Source: a virus (lineage: Duplodnaviria > Caudoviricetes). From it: DNA of 64,000 nucleotides. A model generated the notes under the pieces. That model worked only from the letters and a program-made list of their open reading frames with translations. It was not told the DNA's origin and did no database searches. A program made the translations under genes and the position numbers. Of the stretch, positions 2,555-58,807 are shown one piece after another. The number at the start of each line of letters is the position of its first letter. Position 1 is the first letter of the stretch. The DNA lies in IMG/VR virus record IMGVR_UViG_3300010885_069896, positions 1 through 64,000 of that record, one strand, 5' to 3'.

Positions 2555-3313
2555 ATGACTGAACAACGAACGGGAAATGTAACTGTTATTTTAAATGGAT
2601 ATCGTAGGCCACATGTTCTAAAAGAGCAATATTCTGCTATAATGGAGCAGACAATTAAACCTGCGGAGGTATTTTTTTGGCAAAATAAAGCTCCATATCA
2701 AACTTTTTTTGATAAATCAGTCACCGATAAATGTGTTTCTTTTATTGGAAATTCAAATTTAGGCGTATGGGCAAGGTTTGCTTATGCTTTAATGGCTAAA
2801 ACAAAATATGTTTGCGTTTTCGATGATGATACGATTCCGGGAAATCGCTGGATAGAAAATTGCATTCTTTCAAATAAACAAAAACGTGGCCTACATGGAA
2901 CGATTGGTGTGGTTTTTGATAGTGATGCAGGTTATGCAGGTCCATATCATCGGATTGGTTGGGATGGACCCAATGAAGAAATTGGAGAAGCTGATATAGT
3001 AGGGCATTCTTGGTTTTTTGAAAAGGAGTTATTAACTACTTTCTGGAGAGAATTACCAGATCCTAAATTTGATAGAGCAGGTGAAGATATTCATTTTTCT
3101 TACATGTTACAAAAGTATGCTGGTTTAGGGACATATGTTCCGCCGCACCCAAAGGATGATAAGTCTCTTTGGGGATCATTACCAGACAAAGCAATGAAGT
3201 ATGGCGTAGATGCAGCTGCTATCTCTATTGATCCATCTGGTTTACAAAGAATGAATGAATACGTAATGTTAAGCAAGGCCGGTGGATATAAATTTGTAAA
3301 GGATCGTAAATGA
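2555..3313 (+). CDS. Glycosyltransferase, GT-A fold (GT2-like)
   Basis: VILNGYRR start, VFDDD metal-binding motif, GEDIHFS motif, and cluster context. Confidence 0.75.
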   Translation: MTEQRTGNVTVILNGYRRPHVLKEQYSAIMEQTIKPAEVFFWQNKAPYQTFFDKSVTDKCVSFIGNSNLGVWARFAYALMAKTKYVCVFDDDTIPGNRWIENCILSNKQKRGLHGTIGVVFDSDAGYAGPYHRIGWDGPNEEIGEADIVGHSWFFEKELLTTFWRELPDPKFDRAGEDIHFSYMLQKYAGLGTYVPPHPKDDKSLWGSLPDKAMKYGVDAAAISIDPSGLQRMNEYVMLSKAGGYKFVKDRK

Positions 3314-4311
3314 ATATACTTGTTTGTTATGGCACAAGACCAGAACTAATCAAAATCAAACCGCTTTTAGCTGCGTTTAAAGAAAACAATACAGCATTTA
3401 AAACGTTACGTATAGAACAGCATACGACGCTCATTAGTGGCACGGAACAAGACGACCACGTAGTTGGTGTACCGGCTGGGTTAAATCGACTAGATGCCAT
3501 ATTAGGCACAATAAACAATGTTCCAGATAATGTCTTTGAAAATGTAACACATATCTTAGTACAAGGAGACACAGCTACTGCATTTATGTGTGCAATGGCG
3601 GCTTTTCATCGTAATATTCCTGTTATTCATTTGGAAGCAGGGTTAAGAACATATGACAGACAAAACCCTTATCCAGAAGAAACGTATAGGCAGCTAATAT
3701 CTAAAGTTGCAACTGTGCATCTTTGCCCAACGGAACAAAACAATAATAACTTGCTTAGCGAGAATGTTCGATCTAACGTATTTGTTGTTGGAAACACGGT
3801 GCTTGATAATCTCGTGGGATATCGCAACAACGTTGATTATGGTGATGAGATATTAATAACGTTGCACAGAAGAGAAAATCATCCGATTGTTAAAGATTGG
3901 TTTATTGAGTTAGATAAACTAGCTCAAAAACATACAAAATACAAATTTGTTTTTCCAATGCACCCTAATCCAAACGTTCAAAAGTATCGTTATTTGTTAA
4001 ATCATATCGATGTTGTACAACCTCTTCCATATGAGAGTTTCTTAGAAAAAGTTGTTGGTTGTGGAATGTTGATTTCTGATAGCGGAGGCATTCAAGAAGA
4101 GGCTTCGTTTCTAGGTAAAAAAGTGATTGTTTGCAGAACAAAAACCGAAAGACCGGAATCGTTGAACAAAACAAGCTTTCTTTGCAAGACTCCAAGCGAG
4201 CTAGAAACCTTGTTTGATAAATTAATTATTGATTTAAAATGCGAACAAAGCAATGTGTTTGGTGATGGAAATAGTGCAAAAAACGTTATCAATGTATTAA
4301 GGGAACTATAA
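3310..4311 (+). CDS. wecB: UDP-N-acetylglucosamine 2-epimerase (non-hydrolysing)
   Basis: GTRPE(L)IK, VQGDT, HLEAGLRT, PYPEE, VGNTVLD, TLHRREN, DSGGIQEEA, TERPE, FGDG. Confidence 0.95.
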   Translation: MNILVCYGTRPELIKIKPLLAAFKENNTAFKTLRIEQHTTLISGTEQDDHVVGVPAGLNRLDAILGTINNVPDNVFENVTHILVQGDTATAFMCAMAAFHRNIPVIHLEAGLRTYDRQNPYPEETYRQLISKVATVHLCPTEQNNNNLLSENVRSNVFVVGNTVLDNLVGYRNNVDYGDEILITLHRRENHPIVKDWFIELDKLAQKHTKYKFVFPMHPNPNVQKYRYLLNHIDVVQPLPYESFLEKVVGCGMLISDSGGIQEEASFLGKKVIVCRTKTERPESLNKTSFLCKTPSELETLFDKLIIDLKCEQSNVFGDGNSAKNVINVLREL

Positions 4312-4312
4312 A

Positions 4313-5020
4313 ATGGCAACCAAAGATTTTTTTCAAGAACTAAAAAACATCGAACAAAGATTAAAGTCTGGGCAAAAGTTTGCGTTCTCAAAGTATGCAG
4401 ATGGTGAATGGGCAATGATAAACAACTCACCTGTAGCGTCTGTTGGTGAGTTTCAATATCTTAAAGAAGATATTTTTTACTCAAACAAGCTACTTGATTC
4501 ATATCGTTTTAAAGACGACGGTTATTATATTGGTATAAGTTGTCCTTGTTGTCAAGGTATTGAAACGCACAAAAGAATGTTTTTGTCTTCAAAACAAAAA
4601 GAAGATCATGTTACCTTTGCAAACGTGTTCGTGAACTCAAACTATCCTTATTACATTGAAAACATTGTTCCCTTTTATAAAACAAAAAAGGTTGTGCTGG
4701 TTTGCAATCGTAATGGCAAAATTGAGAACTTGCCTTTTACACCAGAAAAGGTATACCCTATCGACAACACTGCATTTAAAACAAACTACAGTTTGATTGA
4801 GGAGATGAAAAAAGACTCTGATGGAGTAACAGATCATCTTTATTTGCTTTGTGCTGGTCCTTTAGGGAATATGCTGGCTCATGAACTTTGGAAAACTAAT
4901 AAAGAAAACGTATACTTGGATATTGGTTCAACGTTGAATCCTTGGCTGCAAGCCGAAGGTCACAAAAGAGATTATTACATTGGCAAAGATTTTAGTCGCC
5001 AAAATTGTGTTTGGGGATGA
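4313..5020 (+). CDS. GT-D fold (DUF1792-like) glycosyltransferase
   Basis: FAFSKYADGE at the N-terminus, LCAGP and YLDIGS motifs. Confidence 0.7.
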   Translation: MATKDFFQELKNIEQRLKSGQKFAFSKYADGEWAMINNSPVASVGEFQYLKEDIFYSNKLLDSYRFKDDGYYIGISCPCCQGIETHKRMFLSSKQKEDHVTFANVFVNSNYPYYIENIVPFYKTKKVVLVCNRNGKIENLPFTPEKVYPIDNTAFKTNYSLIEEMKKDSDGVTDHLYLLCAGPLGNMLAHELWKTNKENVYLDIGSTLNPWLQAEGHKRDYYIGKDFSRQNCVWG

Positions 5021-5031
5021 AGGGATAAAAA

Positions 5032-5751
5032 ATGAATAAGACACTAGAAAATATTTTAATCAATTCTTATGAGGCTTCTAATCTTAAAAAATGGGAAGAA
5101 AGGATTTCGCAGGAAGTAAATGAATATTCATATTTTGTTGACATGCAAAAAGTTCATGGAACATGTGTTGATGTTGGTGCGAATATTGGAGCTTTTTCTT
5201 TTAAATATGGTAATTTATTTAACCGAGTTATATGTATTGAACCAGCAGCTGGAAATGTGAAATTTATAAAAAATTCAATTATTGAAAAAAATATAAAAAA
5301 CATTGAAGTGATTAGAAGAGCTGTTTCTGTAAACAATAAAGATGTTGTTAAATTAAGAGCAATGAAAAAACTAAATGGTTTTGATGGAATTGGTAGCATT
5401 GGTGATTTAAGCACACAATTACATACATTTTTAGATCAAACTGGCTGGTTGGACGAAAGTGACAATTATGAAGAAGTCGAAACTATTAATCTTGAAAATA
5501 TATTTTTAGATTTTAATTTAAAAACCATAAATCTTTTGAAAGTTGATTGCGAAGGTAGTGAATATGATTTTTTATTTGATAAAGATTTGAAATGCATTGA
5601 TCGTATTGTTATGGAAGTTCATGGTTTCTTGAGTCAAGAAAAGATTGCAAAATTAATCAATCATATAAATAAAACACACAATGTTTTTCGCATCACAAAA
5701 CCAACTCCAAATTTTAATATTGGTTTTGTGAGTAAACTTAATAATTCTTAG
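5032..5751 (+). CDS. FkbM-family SAM methyltransferase
   Basis: VDVGANIG, IEPA, LLKVDCEGSEY, IVMEVH. Confidence 0.88.
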   Translation: MNKTLENILINSYEASNLKKWEERISQEVNEYSYFVDMQKVHGTCVDVGANIGAFSFKYGNLFNRVICIEPAAGNVKFIKNSIIEKNIKNIEVIRRAVSVNNKDVVKLRAMKKLNGFDGIGSIGDLSTQLHTFLDQTGWLDESDNYEEVETINLENIFLDFNLKTINLLKVDCEGSEYDFLFDKDLKCIDRIVMEVHGFLSQEKIAKLINHINKTHNVFRITKPTPNFNIGFVSKLNNS

Positions 5752-45306: not shown

Positions 45307-45579
45307 TTAAATTTTCGTTACGATCACTGTTGCGATTGATCTTATAATAATTCCAAGAAATAAAACTAAAAACAAATTAGAATCAGTGAATGTAATATTT
45401 TTATTTATCTTAGATAATGTTTTATCTTTGGAAATATTTAAATACATCATAGTTCCAAGTATTATTTCTGGTATTGCGTAGTGTAAATTAAAAATTAAAT
45501 TATTTCTACAAAGTAGCCATTCTATTAGAAACAGAAAAATTAAAGGCCCCAGTATTTTGCAAGGGCAATCTTTTTTCAT
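45307..45579 (-). CDS. Small hypothetical membrane protein
   Basis: Three hydrophobic segments in 90 aa; coupled to the upstream minus-strand gene. Confidence 0.55.
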   Translation of the reverse strand: MKKDCPCKILGPLIFLFLIEWLLCRNNLIFNLHYAIPEIILGTMMYLNISKDKTLSKINKNITFTDSNLFLVLFLGIIIRSIATVIVTKI

Positions 45580-45929
45580 GTTATTTGACCATGTATGATG
45601 TGCATGTGATTTTGGTGAATATAAGCAGTTTTTTGATAATATTCAAAGAAAACAGGAAAAAGCATCACAAGATCACTACCTCCAAAACCTTTTGTGGTTT
45701 CGGTCATTCGTTCAACATATGATCTCTGGACTTTTACCGGTTCTCCTACTATTTTAGCAGTAAGACCACCTTTTACACCGCCAACAGGTCTTGGGAAAAC
45801 ACAACCATTCATGTCAATTCGAACATTTCCAATATTATCTTTTTCAAGCTCAAACACAGGAATGTTATCCGATGCCACACCATGAACAATGCTACCCATA
45901 CCTACTTTAACTGAATCTCCTATTGACAT
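45576..45929 (-). CDS. Hypothetical protein (117 aa)
   Basis: Start moved from 46028 (which overlaps groEL) to ATG 45929, preceded by an AAAGGT SD. Confidence 0.6.
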   Translation of the reverse strand: MSIGDSVKVGMGSIVHGVASDNIPVFELEKDNIGNVRIDMNGCVFPRPVGGVKGGLTAKIVGEPVKVQRSYVERMTETTKGFGGSDLVMLFPVFFEYYQKTAYIHQNHMHIIHGQIT

Positions 45930-45967
45930 ATTATTACCTTTGTTTCCTAGTATTATATATTTGTTAT

Positions 45968-48736
45968 TTATTGCTGGCCAGTAACAACAACTGCATTTGT
46001 GGTCAAGAGAAGACCAATCACAGAACATGCATGAGAAAGCGATACACGTTCCACCTTATGAGGGTCAATAATTCCACAATCAATTAAGTCGCAATAAACA
46101 TGTTTTCTCGCATCGTACCCTTGGCGAATTCGTTCATTGACCATTGTTTTAACTTTATTCTCAACAGCTTCTAATGGTCTATTGGTTTTGCCTGCAATAT
46201 CATTTAAAACACTTCTTGCTTTGTCATTTGCCATGTTTTTTAATTCATTCATAACAACATCAGCACTTCGACCTGTATTCTCTACAATAACACGAAGTGG
46301 CTGGCGGCATGCTTCAAAAATAACTTTTGCCCCAGCCAATTCATCTTCAAGAAGGTCGTCCGCATTGATCGCCATTTCTCTTTGCAGCCATTCTGAGGCA
46401 TAGAAAAGAGCCGTGCCACCACCTGGGAGGATTCCCTCTTGAACAGCCGCTATCGTGGCGTTTAAAGCGTCTTCTACACGGTCTTTCTTTTCAAAGATTT
46501 CAACTTCTGTCGATCCACCAACTTTAATAACAGCAATACCACCAGCGAGCTTAGCAAGTCGCTTTTTTGTGTTATCACGTTTCAGTTCATCAATCGCCAC
46601 ATTCGTTGCTAATAGTGAACGCAGTTGCTCAATTCGCTCATCGATAAGTAATTTACGGGCACTGTCTTCGCCCACAAGTGTAGTTGTGCCCCTGGAGATA
46701 ATGGCACGTTTACATTTACCAAGATCCTTTAGGGTTACACTTTTTAGATTTGTCCCAGAACTGGCATCAATTACACTACCGCCAGTAACCAAAGCAATAT
46801 CTGATAAAATATCAATTCTATTATCACCATAACTTGGTGCCTTAACGGCACAAGAAAATAAAACACCTTTCATTTTATTTACAAGCAATGTATGTAAAGC
46901 TTCGCCTTCAATTTCATCACCGATAATTAAAAGAGGTTTATTGGCATTGGCAACCTGTTCAAGTACTGGTAAAATATCTGCTAATGAGCTAAGCTTACGA
47001 TTTGTTATAAGAATGTAGGGCTCTGTTAGTTCGCAAGTTAGTTTTTCTTGATTTGTAACAAAGTAAGGAGAAACAAAACCAGATTCAAATTGCATGCCTT
47101 CAACAACGTCAAGCGTTGTTTTCACGCTTTTTGCTGGTTCAATTGTAATAATTCCATCTTGTCCGACTTTAGAAATGGCATCGGAAAGTAATATCCCTAT
47201 AGAGCGATCTCCGTTGGCAGAAATAGTTCCGATATTAATGATATCATCATTATTTCTTACGGGTATTGCATTTTCTTTAATCCATCCTGTAACTTTTTCC
47301 GTCGCCCACTCCATTCCATGCTTGATGGAAATAGATGAGCGGCCAGTAGCAATCATCTTGACACCTTGCTGAAGCATTGAGTATCCTAGAACGGTAGCCG
47401 TCGTGGTGTTGTGCGTTGGAACATAATCATTTGTAATATATAAGCAATCTTGATTACTGACCTTGATACACATCATTTCAGTTTGCTTATCAAGTTTTTT
47501 AATATCAGTAATACGCATTCCACACTTATTACCTTTTAGCTCGGTAATTCTGTAAATTGGTTTAGTACTATAAGATCCATCATTATGTTTTCTTGCATAA
47601 GTTTGTATATTGACTGATTTGCCAAGACTTCGACATAACTCAACAAAATCTTGACACAGTTGTTTACTAACCGTGCTATATTCAAATAATCCACGACTGT
47701 TAATGCTACCATCTGTATCAATCAAGCCATTTAGTAGTTTTTCTCTGACTGCGGTCACTGAATACAAATATTGCTTTGGAATAAATTTAGTGTGGCTTGT
47801 TTTTCCAAGGAGTCCAAGTTGTTCTAAATGATTTTTTATGATGGATTTTTGTCCATGAACTGGTTGTTTTGCACGATGACTACCAGTAATTGAGGCTTTT
47901 ATATAATGTTTTGTGGATGTATAATATCTTTTACGTAGCTTACAGCCATCTGGCAAAACTATATTATCAAGAATATAGTTTTCTTTGAGACCAACCGAAA
48001 TATCAATTTCATGTTTTTGCGAGAGACTGCCATCTCCAAGAAGAACGCCAAGTAAGTACGGGTCTATTGTTAAATCACTTGAATTTTCAAATTCAACTGG
48101 TGTTTTATTAATAAAAAATCTTCCTCTACCCCCAAGTTGAGCTACAGCGCCCGTTTCTAATAGCGCTTTTGTAGTCATCACCTTTTCAGTTCCATAATTT
48201 GTGTTAACACTCCACAAATGATCCTCACAACACTCTACTGTTCTTGAAATTGTGTTGCGATTGCCGTCAGATATAATAACTTGATATATATCTCTCATTC
48301 CCTTTGGAAAGATACCAAGAACTTTTTGTACAGTTCCATTGGTACCGCAAATTGAGTCACCTATTTTTAATGCACCTAATGTCGTCCATCCGTGCGGTGT
48401 TAATACTTTAGCGTATAGCGGCTGTGGCCCGTCACCTGCCAATTCATTTGTTTTACTTGCAATTTCTTTAATAAGTTCCGCCCCAATAGAAGGAAGCTTG
48501 TCTTTTAAATTAATACTTCTGGCAACCGTGACTCCATCTTTTGTGATTATTGGTGCAGTTACCCCGGTATCAATAATTACATTATGCCCTGACGGACCCA
48601 TCGTAGATTTTACGGCACGATAAAGAATTTCTGCTCCTTGCAGTAATTGAGTATGTGCCTCTTGGCCAAATGTTACTTCGTTCACTGATGGCTTTTGTTG
48701 CATTTCCGCTGCTACCATTTGTCCTGCTTTGCTCAT
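45968..48736 (-). CDS. groEL: Group I chaperonin GroEL (Cpn60) interrupted by an intein; 582 aa after splicing
   Basis: VKSTMGPSGHNV, ITKDGVTVA, AGDG|TTTATVL, ISANGD, VEGMQF, KAPSYGDNR, RLAKLAGGIAVIKVG, RVEDALNAT-AA-EGILPGGG, GIIDP-KV-R. Confidence 0.97.
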   Translation of the reverse strand: MSKAGQMVAAEMQQKPSVNEVTFGQEAHTQLLQGAEILYRAVKSTMGPSGHNVIIDTGVTAPIITKDGVTVARSINLKDKLPSIGAELIKEIASKTNELAGDGPQPLYAKVLTPHGWTTLGALKIGDSICGTNGTVQKVLGIFPKGMRDIYQVIISDGNRNTISRTVECCEDHLWSVNTNYGTEKVMTTKALLETGAVAQLGGRGRFFINKTPVEFENSSDLTIDPYLLGVLLGDGSLSQKHEIDISVGLKENYILDNIVLPDGCKLRKRYYTSTKHYIKASITGSHRAKQPVHGQKSIIKNHLEQLGLLGKTSHTKFIPKQYLYSVTAVREKLLNGLIDTDGSINSRGLFEYSTVSKQLCQDFVELCRSLGKSVNIQTYARKHNDGSYSTKPIYRITELKGNKCGMRITDIKKLDKQTEMMCIKVSNQDCLYITNDYVPTHNTTTATVLGYSMLQQGVKMIATGRSSISIKHGMEWATEKVTGWIKENAIPVRNNDDIINIGTISANGDRSIGILLSDAISKVGQDGIITIEPAKSVKTTLDVVEGMQFESGFVSPYFVTNQEKLTCELTEPYILITNRKLSSLADILPVLEQVANANKPLLIIGDEIEGEALHTLLVNKMKGVLFSCAVKAPSYGDNRIDILSDIALVTGGSVIDASSGTNLKSVTLKDLGKCKRAIISRGTTTLVGEDSARKLLIDERIEQLRSLLATNVAIDELKRDNTKKRLAKLAGGIAVIKVGGSTEVEIFEKKDRVEDALNATIAAVQEGILPGGGTALFYASEWLQREMAINADDLLEDELAGAKVIFEACRQPLRVIVENTGRSADVVMNELKNMANDKARSVLNDIAGKTNRPLEAVENKVKTMVNERIRQGYDARKHVYCDLIDCGIIDPHKVERVSLSHACSVIGLLLTTNAVVVTGQQ
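47408..48427 (-). mobile_element. Class-3-type intein (340 aa) with a LAGLIDADG endonuclease, in GroEL
   Basis: Starts PQPLYAKVLTP. Block B DHLW, block F MMCIKV, ends PTHN before Thr+1 (W-C-T triplet). LAGLIDADG-like LGVLLGDGS and NGLIDTDGS. Confidence 0.92.
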
Positions 48737-48743
48737 TGTTTTT

Positions 48744-49253
48744 TCATTCTTGTGGTAAGTTAACTGCTATTTTACGAACAGAGCCATCTGGCATCATGAC
48801 TTCTCTTGTGTTGAGGTCTGGATCAGATAAGGCTGATCGAAAATTATTCATGGCATTATTTGCCGTTTGAGTACGTGGTTGATTTCCTACTTCACTCAAA
48901 AAAACAGAAGGATCTAATTTTTCGCCAGTTTGATTTGTCGCTGCGGAGGATTTATCAACATTGCCATACCAAGAATTTACACGTCCCATAGTATTTGCAC
49001 ATAAATCATCAACAAATGCCGTCAGCCTAGAAATAAGAACATTCCTTACTTCATCAATACTGCCATAAACTTCGCCATCCACACTGGAAAGATCAACAAT
49101 TCTTTGTTTTTCTGGCGGTCCAATTGCAATCTTATATGAAACGCTCTCACCATCCAGAGAACGGTTAACTATTTCTTGTCTTATGATGCCCGGTAAAACA
49201 GTTTGAGTTTTATTGCTAAGGACATATATTACTTGACCAATCGTATAACTCAT
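48744..49253 (-). CDS. Hypothetical protein (169 aa)
   Basis: Coupled ORF in the minus-strand operon; N-terminal beta-rich YTIGQVIYV. Confidence 0.7.
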   Translation of the reverse strand: MSYTIGQVIYVLSNKTQTVLPGIIRQEIVNRSLDGESVSYKIAIGPPEKQRIVDLSSVDGEVYGSIDEVRNVLISRLTAFVDDLCANTMGRVNSWYGNVDKSSAATNQTGEKLDPSVFLSEVGNQPRTQTANNAMNNFRSALSDPDLNTREVMMPDGSVRKIAVNLPQE

Positions 49254-49265
49254 TATTATATCCTA

Positions 49266-49676
49266 TCAGAACTTTGGAGTTCCTTGTAAAACCTTCATAT
49301 AATCTTCAGTCAAAACAAGAATAACATCATTACTTGCCATTTTTCTTTCATAAGGCGTAAATTCTAGTTTGCTTAGTGAAGTTCTCAGCTTTTGTTCTGA
49401 GTCATATCCAGAATATAAATCAAAAAAATACAATATTTTCTCAAAAGCAGAAGTGTGCAGTGCCATTGGAACAATGCTATTAGTTGATTGTCTACGGCTC
49501 ATCGCTTCATTGATATATTGGTCTGCATCGACAAGAATCATGTCTTGACGATCACCAGCATAAACTGCATATCGTTTTTGACTAAGAATATCTCTTAGTT
49601 TTTTTTCTGATGCATGACCGCCAAAATTTCTACAGTTAAGAATTATTTGTTCTACAACGCTTGGATGAAATCTCAT
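49266..49676 (-). CDS. Hypothetical protein (136 aa)
   Basis: Coupled ORF (ATGA overlap). Confidence 0.65.
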   Translation of the reverse strand: MRFHPSVVEQIILNCRNFGGHASEKKLRDILSQKRYAVYAGDRQDMILVDADQYINEAMSRRQSTNSIVPMALHTSAFEKILYFFDLYSGYDSEQKLRTSLSKLEFTPYERKMASNDVILVLTEDYMKVLQGTPKF

Positions 49677-53269: not shown

Positions 53270-56200
53270 ATGGCAAATCAACAAAAAAGTTTCTATCAAC
53301 GTTTAACTCGTCTTTTCCGAAGTGGCCCAGCAATTCGCCGCAAAGTAAAAGGGCAAGATTATAAAAATTTCTACGATAATCAAGTTGTACAAAACAATCT
53401 AGGATATTATGGTGCATCTGGGTTTAAACGGGAAGCATCGCCATTTTCCGTCATGGGTGCTTATGGTATCCTCGATCGCAATTCAAGATATGCAGAGTTC
53501 GCAGAAATGGAAAACTGCTTGCATGGTGACACTAAAATTGCAGTGCCTGGAGGATATAAAACACTCAAGGAACTAACTGAAGAATATGGATTAGAAAAAG
53601 ATTTCATTGTATATTCTTACGATCACAAAAAAGGTGCAATTTTTCCGGCAGTGGCACGTCAGGCAAGACATACTACAACCACTCATGCTTATCGAGTTAA
53701 ATTTGATAATGGCAAAGAAATTATAGGAACAGAGGATCATCGTCTCATGAAACGAGATGGTACTTATTGTGAAATTCGTGATCTTAAGTCTGGTGATGCG
53801 ATGATGCCATTTTATCGACGATCTCTTGTCGGACAAAAAACAGGACCAGAGCTTCAAAAAAATTGTTATCAAGTTATATACACGATGAATAAAGAAGATA
53901 GTCCATCTAGATGGATATCGGAGCACAGATTGTTAGGTAAATTTATCACAGGAAAAGGTTTGGCTGCAAACGAAGTTGTTCATCATAAAAATTTTCAAGC
54001 TCACGATAATCGACTAGAAAATCTAGAGCTTATGACACTGGAGGCACATCAAACGTTGCACGCAAAAATACTGAATGGTAAAAAATGGGACAAAGAAACC
54101 AACTCAGAATGGATATCAGCATTCAAGAAACGTCACTCGGCTTGGATGAAAGAAAATAACCCAGCAGAAAGAAAAGATATTAAATTTGAAAGAATATTGC
54201 AATGGTGTGATGAAAACGGTTATAATTTACATGCTGTCGCTAGAGCGTTTGATACTGACCTCAATACAATTAAAAGAAAACTAAAATTAAAAGGCTTTAA
54301 TGATTTTATTTCATTCGCAAAAGCATACTGCGTTGGCTGGAAACCTTATAACGGAGAAAATAAAGGATCTAGTAACAATCGCTATCGTAGCGATCTAACG
54401 TTTGAATCGATCTGCAACGCATACACAAAAGGGCTAAGTCAAAAAGCGCTCGCCAAGAAACTAAAATCTTCAGTTACTCCAATAAATGCTAGGTTAAAAG
54501 AACACAAATATAATACATGGTCAGAATTCGCCTCGACATATGAAAATCTTAAAGTTGAAAGCATTGAGTATTATGGGATAACTGACCTGTATGATATCAC
54601 TGTCGATGGTTACAAAAACTTTGCGACAGATTCTCTCATAGCCCACAATACGGCTGAGATCGCTACTGCATTAAATGTATATGCTGACGAGTCTTGTGCG
54701 ACTGATGAAAAAGGAAAAACATTCCACATTTACTCAGAAAATGCACAAGTACAAAAGGCGCTAGAAGAGTTGTTTTACGAAGTTGTTAATATTGAATTTA
54801 ATGCCCGTAGAATGGTGAGAAATTTAGTTAAAAATGGCGACTATTTTTGTTATGTTGAAGTAGTACCAGATTTTGGCGTTATTAATGTTGAACCATTGCC
54901 AGTCAATGAAATCGAACGTGAAGAAGGATTCGATAAACATGATCCATATGCTGTTCGTTATCGCCTGATAACTCGTGGCGGAAAATATTTAGAAAACTGG
55001 CAGATGCTACATTTCCGTATTCTTGGAAATGATCTTTTCCTTCCGTATGGAACAAGCTTTCTTGAATCTGCACGTAGGTCATGGCGTCAGTTAACAATGA
55101 TGGAAGATGCGATGATGGTATATCGCTTAGTGCGATCACCGGAACGTCGTGTGTTTTATATAGATGTATCAGCAGTCCATCCAAACGATATTCCATCATA
55201 TATGGAGGCCGTCAAGGAGGGGATGAGAGGTGCTTCCGTAATTGAGCAGCAGCAAGGTCGTCAGGATTTCAGATATAACCCATTGCCCGTGCATAAAGAT
55301 ACTGGGATTCCACTGCTTGACGGCAGAACAATAACCATTGAAGAGCTTGCGAAAGAGTACGATACAGGAAAAGAAAACTGGGTATATTCTATTCAGGACT
55401 CTAGCCTCGGAATAGTTCCAGGTAAAGTAGCATGGTGTGGTAAAAATTATACCGCAAATAAATTAATCAAGATAACTCTTGATGATGGAACTAGCCTTAA
55501 AACTGCACCAGAGCACCCTTACGTGCTTCGTGATGGTTCAAGTGTAAGAGCGGACCAATTGATCCCTGGAATGTCTCTAATGCCCCTTTATAGAGAGATT
55601 ACGGACAAAGGATATGAACGGTGCTATAACCCAGAAACCCAGAAATATGAAACCACTCATTCTTTAGTTGCAAAAAACTTCTACCAGAATGAATGGCAGA
55701 ATACAGCGAGACCTGTGGTTCATCATAAGTGTCCATGGGAAAGAGAAACTAATAAAAGAAATAATTCTCCAAGAAATCTAGAAGTAATGAATTTTTGGCA
55801 ACATAGAGAGCTTCATGCAAAAATGGTTGAGCATACTTTGCTTCGCCCCGAAGTATTAAAAGAAAATTCTCGTAGATTGACACGATACAATCGTTCAAAA
55901 CTACATAGCACCCGTGTGTCATTGAATAATATAAAATATCAAAAGGGCCAAAAATTATCTCAGCTATACAATGGTTCTGATCTTCACAAAGAGCATAATG
56001 AAATCAGAAAAGCTGCTCAATTTAATTCATGGTCATTGAACAAGGCGGAACGTTGCCAAGCAATGAGATTTAAATTTACGGAAAAATGCTTGCAAATAGC
56101 TAAAGATTTGCTGTCTGCTAACCCAACTATTTCACGAGATGAATTTGGGGCAAGATTACAAAATAATATTGAATTCGTAGCGGCGATAAAAGAAGCAAAC

Positions 56201-58807
56201 GCTAATACGAAACGTCAAAATAAAATCCCAAACCATAGAATACTTGCACAGAATATTTCTAACTATGCTGGTTTTGAATCTTATGTGGATTTCAAAAACT
56301 CATTCTCTTCTCATCAATATCTTAATCATAAAATTTCAATAGTTGAGACAGTCACAGAAACAGTTGATGTTTATTGCATGACAGTGGTTGGGCCAAATGG
56401 TGAAGAAGATCGTCACAATTTTGCTGCTGTATCTAATGATGATACGGGTAATTCTAAAGAAAAAATTTCGGCAATATTTCTAAAAAACTCCGTAGATGAG
56501 GATTACTTTCTACCAACTAGACCAAACAATCAGACTAAAATTGAATCTATTGCGGGTGGACAAAATACAACGGCCACAGAAGATGTGGAGTACATCCAGA
56601 AAAAACTTATTGCTGCCCTCATGGTACCAAAGGCGTACCTTACATACGATGAAGCAATATCATGCTTGGTCGGAGAAACGCAAATACCTTTACTTGACGG
56701 TTCTAGCCCCACTATCAAAGAACTTTCAGATAAATTTGCTAATGGAGAATTAACTGAAGCTTATTGCTATTCGACTTTACTTGATGGGACAGTTGTTCCA
56801 GGTAAAATAAACAAAGCGTGGGCCACCAAAAAAGTAAATTCAACATATCGGATTTATTTAGACAATGGAGAATATATCGACTGTACGGAAAATCACCCAT
56901 TCCTGTTTAAAAACGGGGTCTATAAACGTGCTGATGAATTGACTGTTAATGACTCATTGATGCCTGTGTATAAAAAACTATCCTCCAAACAAGACAAAGA
57001 TTTACTGGATGGATATGAAATGGTATTTGACAATAAAACTGGTGAATGGAAATATACACACAAAATGGTATCTGACTGGCAAGCTGAAAACAATGGTGGT
57101 TATACTATAGGTAAACAAAGAGTAGTACACCATGTAGATTTTAATAAACTAAATAATAGTCCAAAAAATCTACAAGAGATGACTTGGTACAGCCATAGAA
57201 AACTACATTCACAAAATCTTTCATCGACAATTTTACGACCAGATGTAATGATAAAACGAGAGCCAAGTAGACTTGCTGCGCTTTCGGCATCTAGACACCG
57301 TAATATAAAATCAAGACAAATGAAACAACAAATGAACGATCCAAAATCGGCTTTGCGTTCATGGGTCCATGGGGAAGAAATAAAACAAGTAGTATCCAGA
57401 AACATGAAAGCCGCTTGGAGTACCGAGAAATATCGTTCAATAAAAACCAAGCAAAATAAAGAGATATTACAAAAACCAGAAGTTAGAGAAAAATTGTTTG
57501 GTAAAAATCATTGGGCTGCAAGAGCTACTAAACATTTTGATTTGAATTGGCTTGTTGAATACTGTAAACAAAACAATGTAACAGAATATCTGCATTTCAG
57601 AAAATCATCACAGAACAATTCACCATGTAGCTCTAGAGTAGTCGGAAGAATATTCAGAGAAAACAATATTTCTGGCTGGCGTGAATTTGAAAAACAATAT
57701 CTTTGTTTCAATCACAAAGTTATTCAGATAGAAATAAAAGAGTGCGGTGATGAAGCCACACAGGGTGTTTGGGTATATGACTTGGAAGTAGAAAAGACAC
57801 ACAACTTCCTTGTAAAACAAGGCGTGGTAGTACACAACAGCAAAAGTACATTGGCTCAGGAGGACATTAGATTTTCTCGCACAATTGCAACATTACAAAA
57901 AATCATGATTGCTGAATTAAATAAACTTGCAATCATTCATTTGTATGCACTTGGATTCAGCGGAGATGATTTATTAAACTTTGAACTTAAATTCTCCAAC
58001 CCTTCGACAGTAGCAGTCCAGCAAAAACTAGCATTGGTTTCTCAAAAAATAGAAATAGCGGCAAAAGCTTGGGAAGTTTCTAAAGAAACAGGCATTATGA
58101 GTATGCCATATATTCAAAAAGAAATTCTTGGACTTCGCCCAGAAGAAATAAATCAAATCCGTCTTGAGGCCCGTCAAGATCAAGTTGCAATGGCCGAGCT
58201 TAAGAAAATAGCAGAAAATCCACCATTTGATAATTCCCTCGACTCAAATATAGATATTTTTGATAAGGGTAACTATAGCGTACCATCTTCTCCTTTTGCG
58301 CCAGACCCTAAACAACTAAGAGATATCGAATTAAAAAATCAAGAAGATGAACTAGCACTTCGCAGAGAAAGAAAATTGGAAAAGGAAAAAAATGGAGAAA
58401 ACTCAGGCGCTCCAATTAAACTTAACCCAACGCCAAATCTTGATAAAGCATTCCGCAGGAATAAAAGAAGCAAAGAATTCACTGGCATCAGTGCTTTGGC
58501 AATGCCTAACTTTAAAGACATGCTTGATATAACAAATAATCGTTATTCTAAAGACCCGTATGATACCCAGAGTTCAAATTATACAAGAAAATTTGTTCTT
58601 GAAGAAAGTCAGATTGAAAATGAGTTGCTTGGTCGTGGAAAACTACCATATAAAATTTCAAAAGAAATGCAATCTACATTAAAAACAATGAATGAATCCA
58701 TGAAAAGAGATTTTGAAATTAAAGGAATTGAACTGGTAAATGAAAAATCTTCAGAAGATCAATCAGATATGTTATTTTTAATAGAAAAAGATCTAAAAAC
58801 AGAATAG
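53270..58807 (+). CDS. Portal protein (T4 gp20-like) with three inteins; about 674 aa after splicing
   Basis: Extein motifs: EMEN|TAEIATALNVYADE, LVKNGDYF, QLTMMEDAMMVYRLVRSPERRVFYIDV, YNPL|SVDEDYFLP, EDVEYIQKKL-VPKAYL, TLAQEDIRFSRTI. Confidence 0.93.
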   Translation: MANQQKSFYQRLTRLFRSGPAIRRKVKGQDYKNFYDNQVVQNNLGYYGASGFKREASPFSVMGAYGILDRNSRYAEFAEMENCLHGDTKIAVPGGYKTLKELTEEYGLEKDFIVYSYDHKKGAIFPAVARQARHTTTTHAYRVKFDNGKEIIGTEDHRLMKRDGTYCEIRDLKSGDAMMPFYRRSLVGQKTGPELQKNCYQVIYTMNKEDSPSRWISEHRLLGKFITGKGLAANEVVHHKNFQAHDNRLENLELMTLEAHQTLHAKILNGKKWDKETNSEWISAFKKRHSAWMKENNPAERKDIKFERILQWCDENGYNLHAVARAFDTDLNTIKRKLKLKGFNDFISFAKAYCVGWKPYNGENKGSSNNRYRSDLTFESICNAYTKGLSQKALAKKLKSSVTPINARLKEHKYNTWSEFASTYENLKVESIEYYGITDLYDITVDGYKNFATDSLIAHNTAEIATALNVYADESCATDEKGKTFHIYSENAQVQKALEELFYEVVNIEFNARRMVRNLVKNGDYFCYVEVVPDFGVINVEPLPVNEIEREEGFDKHDPYAVRYRLITRGGKYLENWQMLHFRILGNDLFLPYGTSFLESARRSWRQLTMMEDAMMVYRLVRSPERRVFYIDVSAVHPNDIPSYMEAVKEGMRGASVIEQQQGRQDFRYNPLPVHKDTGIPLLDGRTITIEELAKEYDTGKENWVYSIQDSSLGIVPGKVAWCGKNYTANKLIKITLDDGTSLKTAPEHPYVLRDGSSVRADQLIPGMSLMPLYREITDKGYERCYNPETQKYETTHSLVAKNFYQNEWQNTARPVVHHKCPWERETNKRNNSPRNLEVMNFWQHRELHAKMVEHTLLRPEVLKENSRRLTRYNRSKLHSTRVSLNNIKYQKGQKLSQLYNGSDLHKEHNEIRKAAQFNSWSLNKAERCQAMRFKFTEKCLQIAKDLLSANPTISRDEFGARLQNNIEFVAAIKEANANTKRQNKIPNHRILAQNISNYAGFESYVDFKNSFSSHQYLNHKISIVETVTETVDVYCMTVVGPNGEEDRHNFAAVSNDDTGNSKEKISAIFLKNSVDEDYFLPTRPNNQTKIESIAGGQNTTATEDVEYIQKKLIAALMVPKAYLTYDEAISCLVGETQIPLLDGSSPTIKELSDKFANGELTEAYCYSTLLDGTVVPGKINKAWATKKVNSTYRIYLDNGEYIDCTENHPFLFKNGVYKRADELTVNDSLMPVYKKLSSKQDKDLLDGYEMVFDNKTGEWKYTHKMVSDWQAENNGGYTIGKQRVVHHVDFNKLNNSPKNLQEMTWYSHRKLHSQNLSSTILRPDVMIKREPSRLAALSASRHRNIKSRQMKQQMNDPKSALRSWVHGEEIKQVVSRNMKAAWSTEKYRSIKTKQNKEILQKPEVREKLFGKNHWAARATKHFDLNWLVEYCKQNNVTEYLHFRKSSQNNSPCSSRVVGRIFRENNISGWREFEKQYLCFNHKVIQIEIKECGDEATQGVWVYDLEVEKTHNFLVKQGVVVHNSKSTLAQEDIRFSRTIATLQKIMIAELNKLAIIHLYALGFSGDDLLNFELKFSNPSTVAVQQKLALVSQKIEIAAKAWEVSKETGIMSMPYIQKEILGLRPEEINQIRLEARQDQVAMAELKKIAENPPFDNSLDSNIDIFDKGNYSVPSSPFAPDPKQLRDIELKNQEDELALRRERKLEKEKNGENSGAPIKLNPTPNLDKAFRRNKRSKEFTGISALAMPNFKDMLDITNNRYSKDPYDTQSSNYTRKFVLEESQIENELLGRGKLPYKISKEMQSTLKTMNESMKRDFEIKGIELVNEKSSEDQSDMLFLIEKDLKTE
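53516..54649 (+). mobile_element. Portal intein 1 (378 aa, class 1, HNH endonuclease)
   Basis: CLHGDTKI...GTEDHRL...VVHHKNF-DNRLENL...LYDITV...IAHN followed by Thr. Confidence 0.93.
55286..56488 (+). mobile_element. Portal intein 2 (401 aa, Pro-initiated and atypical, HNH endonuclease)
   Basis: PVHKDTGIPLLDG...TAPEHPY...VVHHK-NNSPRNL...VYCMTV...RHNF...IFLKN followed by Ser. Removal restores YNPLSVDEDY. Confidence 0.85.
56663..57838 (+). mobile_element. Portal intein 3 (392 aa, class 1, HNH endonuclease)
   Basis: CLVGETQIPLLDG...CTENHPF...VVHHVDFNKLNNSPKNL...VYDLEV...VVHN followed by Ser. Confidence 0.93.

Follow-up and report, generated by a model that had tools for sequence, protein, structure and literature searches.

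The groEL gene in the stretch of viral DNA analyzed here (64,000 nucleotides, positions 1 to 64,000 of IMG/VR record IMGVR_UViG_3300010885_069896; hereafter the window) is split by a 340-amino-acid (aa) insert, which is in our judgement very probably a class 3 intein that is functional, still mobile and equipped with a LAGLIDADG homing endonuclease. The gene belongs to a T4-like phage from freshwater that is uncultured. The window has T4-type baseplate genes, and the stretch was found in freshwater, lake and river metagenomes of 17 studies as well as in three metatranscriptomes. An earlier note on this DNA had placed a 340-aa intein exactly between the GDG and the TTT of the GroEL ATP-binding motif at 47408–48427; the translated open reading frame (ORF) and the intein-less relatives show both the coordinates and the description to be exact. 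The gene and its parts are listed below, where 6bs8 denotes the PDB entry of the M. smegmatis DnaBi1 intein used for residue alignment.

45968–48736, minus strand: groEL precursor gene, 922 codons and a stop, with N-extein, intein and C-extein in a single open frame
48428–48736, minus strand: N-extein, aa 1–103, ending in ..NELAGDG, the last Gly of which is Gly88 of E. coli GroEL (alignment E value 3.5e-24)
47408–48427, minus strand: class-3-type intein with LAGLIDADG homing endonuclease, 340 aa, precursor residues 104–443
48113–48427, minus strand: N-terminal part of the splicing (HINT) domain, intein aa 1–105, with blocks A and B
48419–48427, minus strand: block A, Pro1-Gln-Pro
48425–48427, minus strand: Pro1 codon
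48212–48235, minus strand: block B, ..ECCEDHLW.., intein aa 65–72, including Cys66 and Cys67
48218–48220, minus strand: His70, aligned to His65 of 6bs8
48212–48214, minus strand: Trp72, aligned to Trp67 of 6bs8
47531–48112, minus strand: LAGLIDADG homing-endonuclease domain, intein aa 106–299, from Pfam and fold matches
48029–48055, minus strand: LAGLIDADG motif 1, ..LLGVLLGDG.., aa 125–133, with Asp132 at 48032–48034
47708–47737, minus strand: LAGLIDADG motif 2, ..LLNGLIDTDG.., aa 231–240, with Asp239 at 47711–47713
47408–47530, minus strand: C-terminal part of the splicing domain, intein aa 300–340
47468–47470, minus strand: block F Cys320 in ..MMCIKV.., aligned to the catalytic Cys118 of 6bs8
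47408–47416, minus strand: block G, Thr338-His339-Asn340, aligned to Thr137/His138/Asn139 of 6bs8
45968–47407, minus strand: C-extein, aa 444–922 and the stop, starting with Thr+1 (47405–47407) of TTTATV

The whole precursor, insert included, scores 589.2 bits against TIGR02348, the GroEL equivalog of NCBIfam (cut-off 582.1), and contains a match to Pfam Cpn60_TCP1 (4.6e-48). Because the N-extein aligns to residues 4–88 of the 548-aa E. coli GroEL chains, the insert is located between Gly88 and Thr89; the C-extein of 479 residues takes up the sequence with TTTATVLGY. The intein starts with PQPLYAKV and finishes with VPTHN; both ends can be set without ambiguity, since GDGTTT is continuous in relatives that lack the intein. 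When the insert is removed the GDGTTT loop is restored, and the exteins align gap-free to a 582-aa allele, P0133. In GroEL, Asp87 and Thr89–91 of this loop bind Mg and the phosphates of the nucleotide. Since the insert splits the phosphate-binding loop, a precursor that has not been spliced is most unlikely to work as a chaperonin, and the claim made earlier that chaperonin activity depends on splicing is a reasonable one to draw from the insertion site.

Both halves of the intein assignment, the splicing domain and the endonuclease, are supported by sequence and by a structural model. Two Pfam domains score above cut-off in the insert, Hom_end (37.2 bits against 21.1) and LAGLIDADG_3 (28.6 bits against 22.5), and Hom_end_hint matches weakly at 15.8 bits against a cut-off of 32.1; both LAGLIDADG motifs are intact and keep their acidic residues, Asp132 and Asp239. 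The best PDB sequence matches in a HMMER search are the engineered gp41-1_WCT (6riz), 6bs8, 6rix and 6riy. From an alignment of 38 sequences, AlphaFold2 gave a confident model of the intein (mean predicted local distance difference test score, pLDDT, 92.2; predicted template-modeling score, pTM, 0.90). In Foldseek the best whole-molecule matches of this model are PI-SceI (E value 3.5e-17, template-modeling score 0.69–0.71), TliVMA, PhoVMA and PI-PfuI; its inner domain matches I-DmoI, and its HINT part superposes on the class 3 mini-inteins 6riy, 6rix and 6bs8 with a root-mean-square deviation of 2.1–2.2 Å at 27–28% identity. The element is in frame, is absent from empty GDGTTT alleles and has the HINT fold and blocks A, B, F and G of an intein, while the two motifs with their acidic residues, the Pfam matches above cut-off and the likeness in fold to PI-SceI and I-DmoI are those of a double-motif LAGLIDADG endonuclease, in agreement with the LAGLIDADG intein that the earlier note had claimed.

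An intron was considered in place of an intein and rejected: no Rfam family, so no group I or group II intron, was found in 45500–49500 at E values up to 1, and this reading was dropped on that ground. One freshwater metatranscriptome contig, in which the N-extein continues for 350 nucleotides (nt) into the intein, lends weak support against an intron. Parts of groEL within 46900–48900 of the window occur in contigs of three freshwater metatranscriptomes, and the X8 contigs include extein together with intein; such contigs can neither show a level of expression nor rule out carried-over DNA.

Class 3 inteins are defined by a non-nucleophilic residue 1, the Trp(B:12)-Cys(F:4)-Thr(G:5) (WCT) triplet, Thr or Ser at +1 and an obligate block F Cys (PMC2807308). 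The insert has Pro1 where a Cys, Ser or Thr nucleophile would otherwise stand, a complete triplet (Trp72 at B:12, Cys320 at F:4 and Thr338 at G:5) and the remaining class 3 sequence features, namely Thr+1, His70 and His339-Asn340. Pro1 and the three triplet residues had all been named in the earlier note. The triplet residues, together with His70, His339 and Asn340, align to 6bs8, and the residues of 6bs8 matched here constitute the class 3 active site as defined by crystallography and biochemistry (PMC6195587). Judged by its sequence, the insert would be a class 3 intein by the first three of the four defining features.

The same architecture recurs widely. HMMER was run exhaustively against 1.84 billion cluster representatives (50% identity). 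From the best 150 matches, 147 new representatives were examined, approximately 95 of which have an insert at GDG/T, and a word-indexed search returned dozens of GroELs of 850–930 aa with this architecture alongside GroELs of 570–590 aa without the insert. Pooling of all sequences gave 180 GroEL inteins at GDG/TTT, with identity among them down to approximately 44% (measured on 81 of the 180). Because 180 independent metagenomic GroELs have the insert at the same site, its presence there is far beyond chance. Cys320 is invariant (180/180), and so is His70 (178/178); Trp72 is found in 175 of 178, the other three having Phe, and Pro1 in 172 of 178. Cys66, which lies outside the WCT definition, is kept in 177/178. 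At the active-site position B:7, where this intein has Cys67, 120 members have Cys and 55 have Ser. The endonuclease acids are conserved in the aligned members as well (Asp132 in 161/171, Asp239 in 162/174). The pattern used for extraction required His339 and Asn340 and in part Thr338 (179/180), whereas it placed no requirement on Cys320, His70, Trp72 or Cys66.

Several members of the family differ in form. Six cluster representatives (P0154, P0160, P0196, P0217, P0229 and P0232) start with Cys-Gln-Pro at the same GDG/TTT site and keep the Trp, the Cys at F:4 and the Thr, with ..H(I/M/L)W in block B and mostly ..PVRCIKVSN in block F; Cys1 and Pro1 inteins are thus a natural pair of forms at one insertion site. 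Five GroEL-like proteins of 966–1166 aa (P0204, P0260, P0262, P0268 and P0277) have several matched stretches or displaced GroEL parts and may contain additional insertions or fusions elsewhere in the chain. A related intein lies in a 973-aa protein (L045, 3632–6550, plus strand) whose C-extein starts with the GroEL-loop-like TTTSMVL and in which Pfam finds a LAGLIDADG domain only. In P0110, P0102 and P0121, which bear the intein, the exteins are 62–69% identical to bacterial GroELs (the median being 44%) and there is no GGM tail. An 839-aa intein-bearing GroEL is encoded at 3013–5532 (plus strand) of L161, a 7.8-kb contig of a GTDB genome labeled 'Bacterium isolate M50B98', and a contig of a Nanoarchaeia metagenome-assembled genome (MAG), L166, has a partial match to an intein-plus GroEL. 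Among 50,697 records of deposited phages, none has a GroEL bearing the insert, the closest phage GroELs being approximately 40% identical, and no nearly identical DNA was found in deposited phages.

The distribution of filled and empty sites is what bears on mobility. IMG/VR holds 32 intein-plus and 13 empty groEL loci on contigs of 17–390 kb, and mini-inteins of 139–200 aa that have lost the endonuclease occur at the same site. In three DNA runs from different studies, intein-plus contigs span the insert. P0133 is an empty allele that is 97–98% identical to this gene in both exteins. It differs at ten positions. Seven of these fall within −4 to +49 relative to the junction, and the remaining 528 positions contain only three, a clustering with p of approximately 5e-6 under uniform spread (a binomial estimate for an interval chosen post hoc). 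This suggests the pattern expected of a co-conversion tract centered on the insertion site; alternatively, the differences could be target-site changes in the intein-free allele. A search of IMG/VR with a degenerate pattern gave no match to the P0133-type empty site. Runs containing approximately half of the sequence words were considered as carriers of an empty allele and rejected, X15 and X17 proving to contain intein-plus contigs of approximately 98% identity.

Selection on the element was estimated by comparing the window with IMG/VR locus L001. The proportions of nonsynonymous (pN) and synonymous (pS) differences are 0.138 and 0.67 in the exteins, 0.148 and 0.758 in the splicing domain, and 0.177 and 0.648 in the endonuclease domain (pN/pS 0.27). 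By this rough estimate, constraint on each of the two intein domains equals that on GroEL, with pN/pS of approximately 0.2.

By analogy with the class 3 prototype, these data can be arranged into a splicing and homing cycle. A 922-aa precursor would be translated in which 340 residues split the GDG/TTT loop, so that ATP could not be bound properly. The block F residue Cys320 would then attack the Gly103-Pro1 bond to give a thioester branch, the N-extein would be transferred to the side chain of Thr+1, cyclization of Asn340 would free the intein, and an O-to-N shift would restore GDGTTT in a 582-aa GroEL. The freed endonuclease would cut intein-less groEL of co-infecting related phages at the GDG/TTT coding site, and repair of the cut allele would copy the intein in.

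The alternative that survives best adds a function to this cycle. Besides being selfish, the intein might make phage chaperonin activity conditional on redox state or temperature, as the earlier note had suggested, or on metal. Splicing would pause when Cys320 is oxidized, perhaps by disulfide bonding to Cys66 or Cys67 in block B. Precedents exist: hydrogen peroxide (H2O2) reversibly blocks class 3 DnaB inteins by placing a disulfide on the catalytic Cys (PMC6195587), N-terminal cleavage of MchDnaB1 is inhibited by H2O2 (PMC7664689), and splicing is temperature-dependent in many mutants of MP-Be, the mycobacteriophage Bethlehem 'DnaB' intein that serves as the class 3 prototype (PMC2807308). 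The near-complete conservation of Cys66 and the position of Cys67 at B:7 fit such a switch. However, ECCEDHLW is also present in inteins of PhoH, DnaB and SNF2 proteins, and since these P-loop relatives have it too, the motif is a subfamily trait and not an adaptation to GroEL. The 97–98% identical empty alleles further imply that the phage does not need the intein. On balance we regard a regulatory gate as unlikely.

A second alternative turns the endonuclease on the host. The enzyme would be a weapon that cuts host groEL at the near-universal GDGTTT coding site and cripples the host chaperonin, the phage copy being protected by its intein and supplying chaperonin after splicing. The central 24 nt of the reconstituted target do match 80 bacterial groEL genes at 16–22 of 24 positions, compared with 14–19 of 24 in the empty alleles of related phages; the bacterial set came from a metagenome contig scan with P0133 as the query and comprises ordinary bacterial GroELs of 42–46% identity. 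The existence of intein-bearing GroELs with exteins 62–69% identical to bacterial GroEL points the same way. Against this, a pattern-limited scan of the genomes of 185,579 species yielded a single complete intein-plus GroEL (on the 7.8-kb MAG contig L161) besides the partial match in L166, and the GGM tail is seen in none of the 180 intein-plus GroELs but in 53 of the 80 bacterial ones. Presence and absence among sister phages already account for the element, and a host-directed role is quite improbable.

The splicing chemistry itself could differ from that set out above, for instance if Thr+1 attacked the N-terminal junction directly in a class 2-like manner and Cys320 were not the nucleophile. 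The class assignment is based on sequence alone, and because gp41-1 grafted with the WCT residues gave no working class 3 intein (PMC7664689), the triplet by itself is no proof of mechanism. The six family members with Cys1 that nevertheless keep WCT raise the same question. A route without Cys320 would have to be reconciled with the presence of this residue in all 180 members at a position, F:4, where standard inteins usually have Asp (PMC2807308), with its alignment to the proven nucleophile Cys118 of 6bs8 and with the combination of Pro1 and Thr+1, which is the arrangement of the prototype; we hold it to be highly improbable. That this copy is decaying, with splicing lost and groEL a dead gene, is barely credible given the intact 922-codon frame with every catalytic residue present, the near-identical intein-plus alleles in three more DNA runs from different studies, the occurrence of the stretch in freshwater runs of 17 studies and a pN far below pS in exteins and intein alike.

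Some points weigh against the functional, mobile intein that we favor. The case for splicing, for the part played by Cys320 and for an active endonuclease is built on sequence, a model and population patterns. P0133 is known as a protein alone, so the putative co-conversion tract is read from amino-acid differences. Because synonymous sites are saturated (pS 0.65–0.78), the selection estimate is coarse and represents an average across a long history, and pN/pS cannot prove that the endonuclease of this copy is active today. All contigs in the four runs examined are intein-plus, with no intein-less joint seen among them, and the metatranscriptome contig could be contaminating DNA. With these points taken into account, the element is still a real, intact and probably active class 3 homing intein.

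The element is of interest for its host. Class 3 hosts described so far are almost only helicase-, terminase-, PhoH- and Cas4-type proteins: all of those in the first survey had putative helicase activity (PMC2807308), and in actinobacteriophages, surveyed in 2025, only four host proteins had class 3 inteins (10.1101/2025.01.02.630785). Our literature search, which included intein surveys and lay outside InBase and subscription journals, found no paper naming a chaperonin (GroEL, Cpn60, Hsp60 or thermosome) as an intein host, which agrees with the suspicion voiced in the earlier note. The novelty it proposed stands in part: no publication names a chaperonin host, but the element is not rare, as the roughly 95 of 147 representatives and the 32 IMG/VR loci show, and intein-bearing GroELs are plentiful in public databases, where they are labeled just 'chaperonin GroEL'. 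The chaperonin is a new kind of host for class 3 inteins; the mechanism is an ordinary one. Full-length, mini, Cys1-starting and empty forms make up a natural series for the homing cycle, of which the copy studied is an intact example paired with an empty allele of 97–98% identity. The family also offers a comparison of Cys1 with Pro1 at a single insertion site and a candidate case of a move from the P-loop to a different phosphate-binding loop, and GroEL is an easily assayed host (ATPase, refolding) for work on conditional splicing.

The relatives of the intein bear on its origin. The nearest ones outside GroEL, at 30–36% identity over the full length, lie in PIN-PhoH, PhoH, DnaB, SNF2 and ResIII/DEAD proteins, and most of those aligned are inserted after ..G(T/S)GK and before Thr, an arrangement known as the 'classic P-loop insertion' (PMC5050341). 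Block B ECCEDHLW is common to the GroEL inteins and the PhoH, DnaB and SNF2 relatives and is invariant or nearly so. In an unrooted maximum-likelihood tree a single branch with support 100/100 separates 21 GroEL inteins from 17 others, which fits a single colonization of groEL; the direction is not proven by an unrooted tree. The argument has been made in a 2025 preprint (10.1101/2025.01.02.630785) that class 3 inteins can change hosts where the nucleotide-binding sites of the proteins are alike, and we hypothesize that a jump from the Walker A loop to the GDG/T loop would be a further case of such switching. The 1845-aa portal ORF of the window (53270–58807, plus strand) was ruled out as a source of the GroEL intein, showing no BLASTP similarity to it.

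With PI-SceI, TliVMA, PhoVMA and PI-PfuI the GroEL element shares the two-domain layout of HINT and double LAGLIDADG, although these are class 1 inteins with Cys1 and 12–17% identity, and the chains of PI-SceI and PI-PfuI are larger (405–454 residues). The P-loop class 3 inteins of phage PhoH, DnaB and SNF2 proteins resemble it in the ECCEDHLW block B, ..CI.. in block F, the THN/T junction and a site in a phosphate-binding loop just before Thr; they differ in starting mostly with Ala-Gln-Pro, in a host of the P-loop NTPase fold and in lying on the opposite side of the 100/100 branch from all GroEL inteins. M. smegmatis DnaBi1 (6bs8) and M. chimaera DnaB1 (6rix, 6riy) are the best matches of the HINT domain in both sequence and fold (E value 2e-5), with catalytic residues corresponding one-to-one. 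Both are mini-inteins without an endonuclease that start with Ala and reside in a cellular replicative helicase, and the redox partner in DnaBi1, Cys48, lies outside the splicing blocks with no aligned counterpart shown in the GroEL intein. The splicing route of MP-Be (PMC2807308) was determined by mutagenesis, whereas here it is deduced; the prototype sits in a P-loop helicase-like ATPase and not in a chaperonin, and it has Gln in place of Gly at −1 and Ser62 in place of Cys67 at B:7. In other respects the two correspond closely: both have Pro1, His at B:10, Trp at B:12, a Cys at F:4 that is Cys320 in either intein, a Thr-His-Asn end and Thr+1. In each, a LAGLIDADG endonuclease separates block B from block F; the lengths are nearly the same (341 aa in MP-Be, 340 aa here), and both inteins reside in a phage genome.

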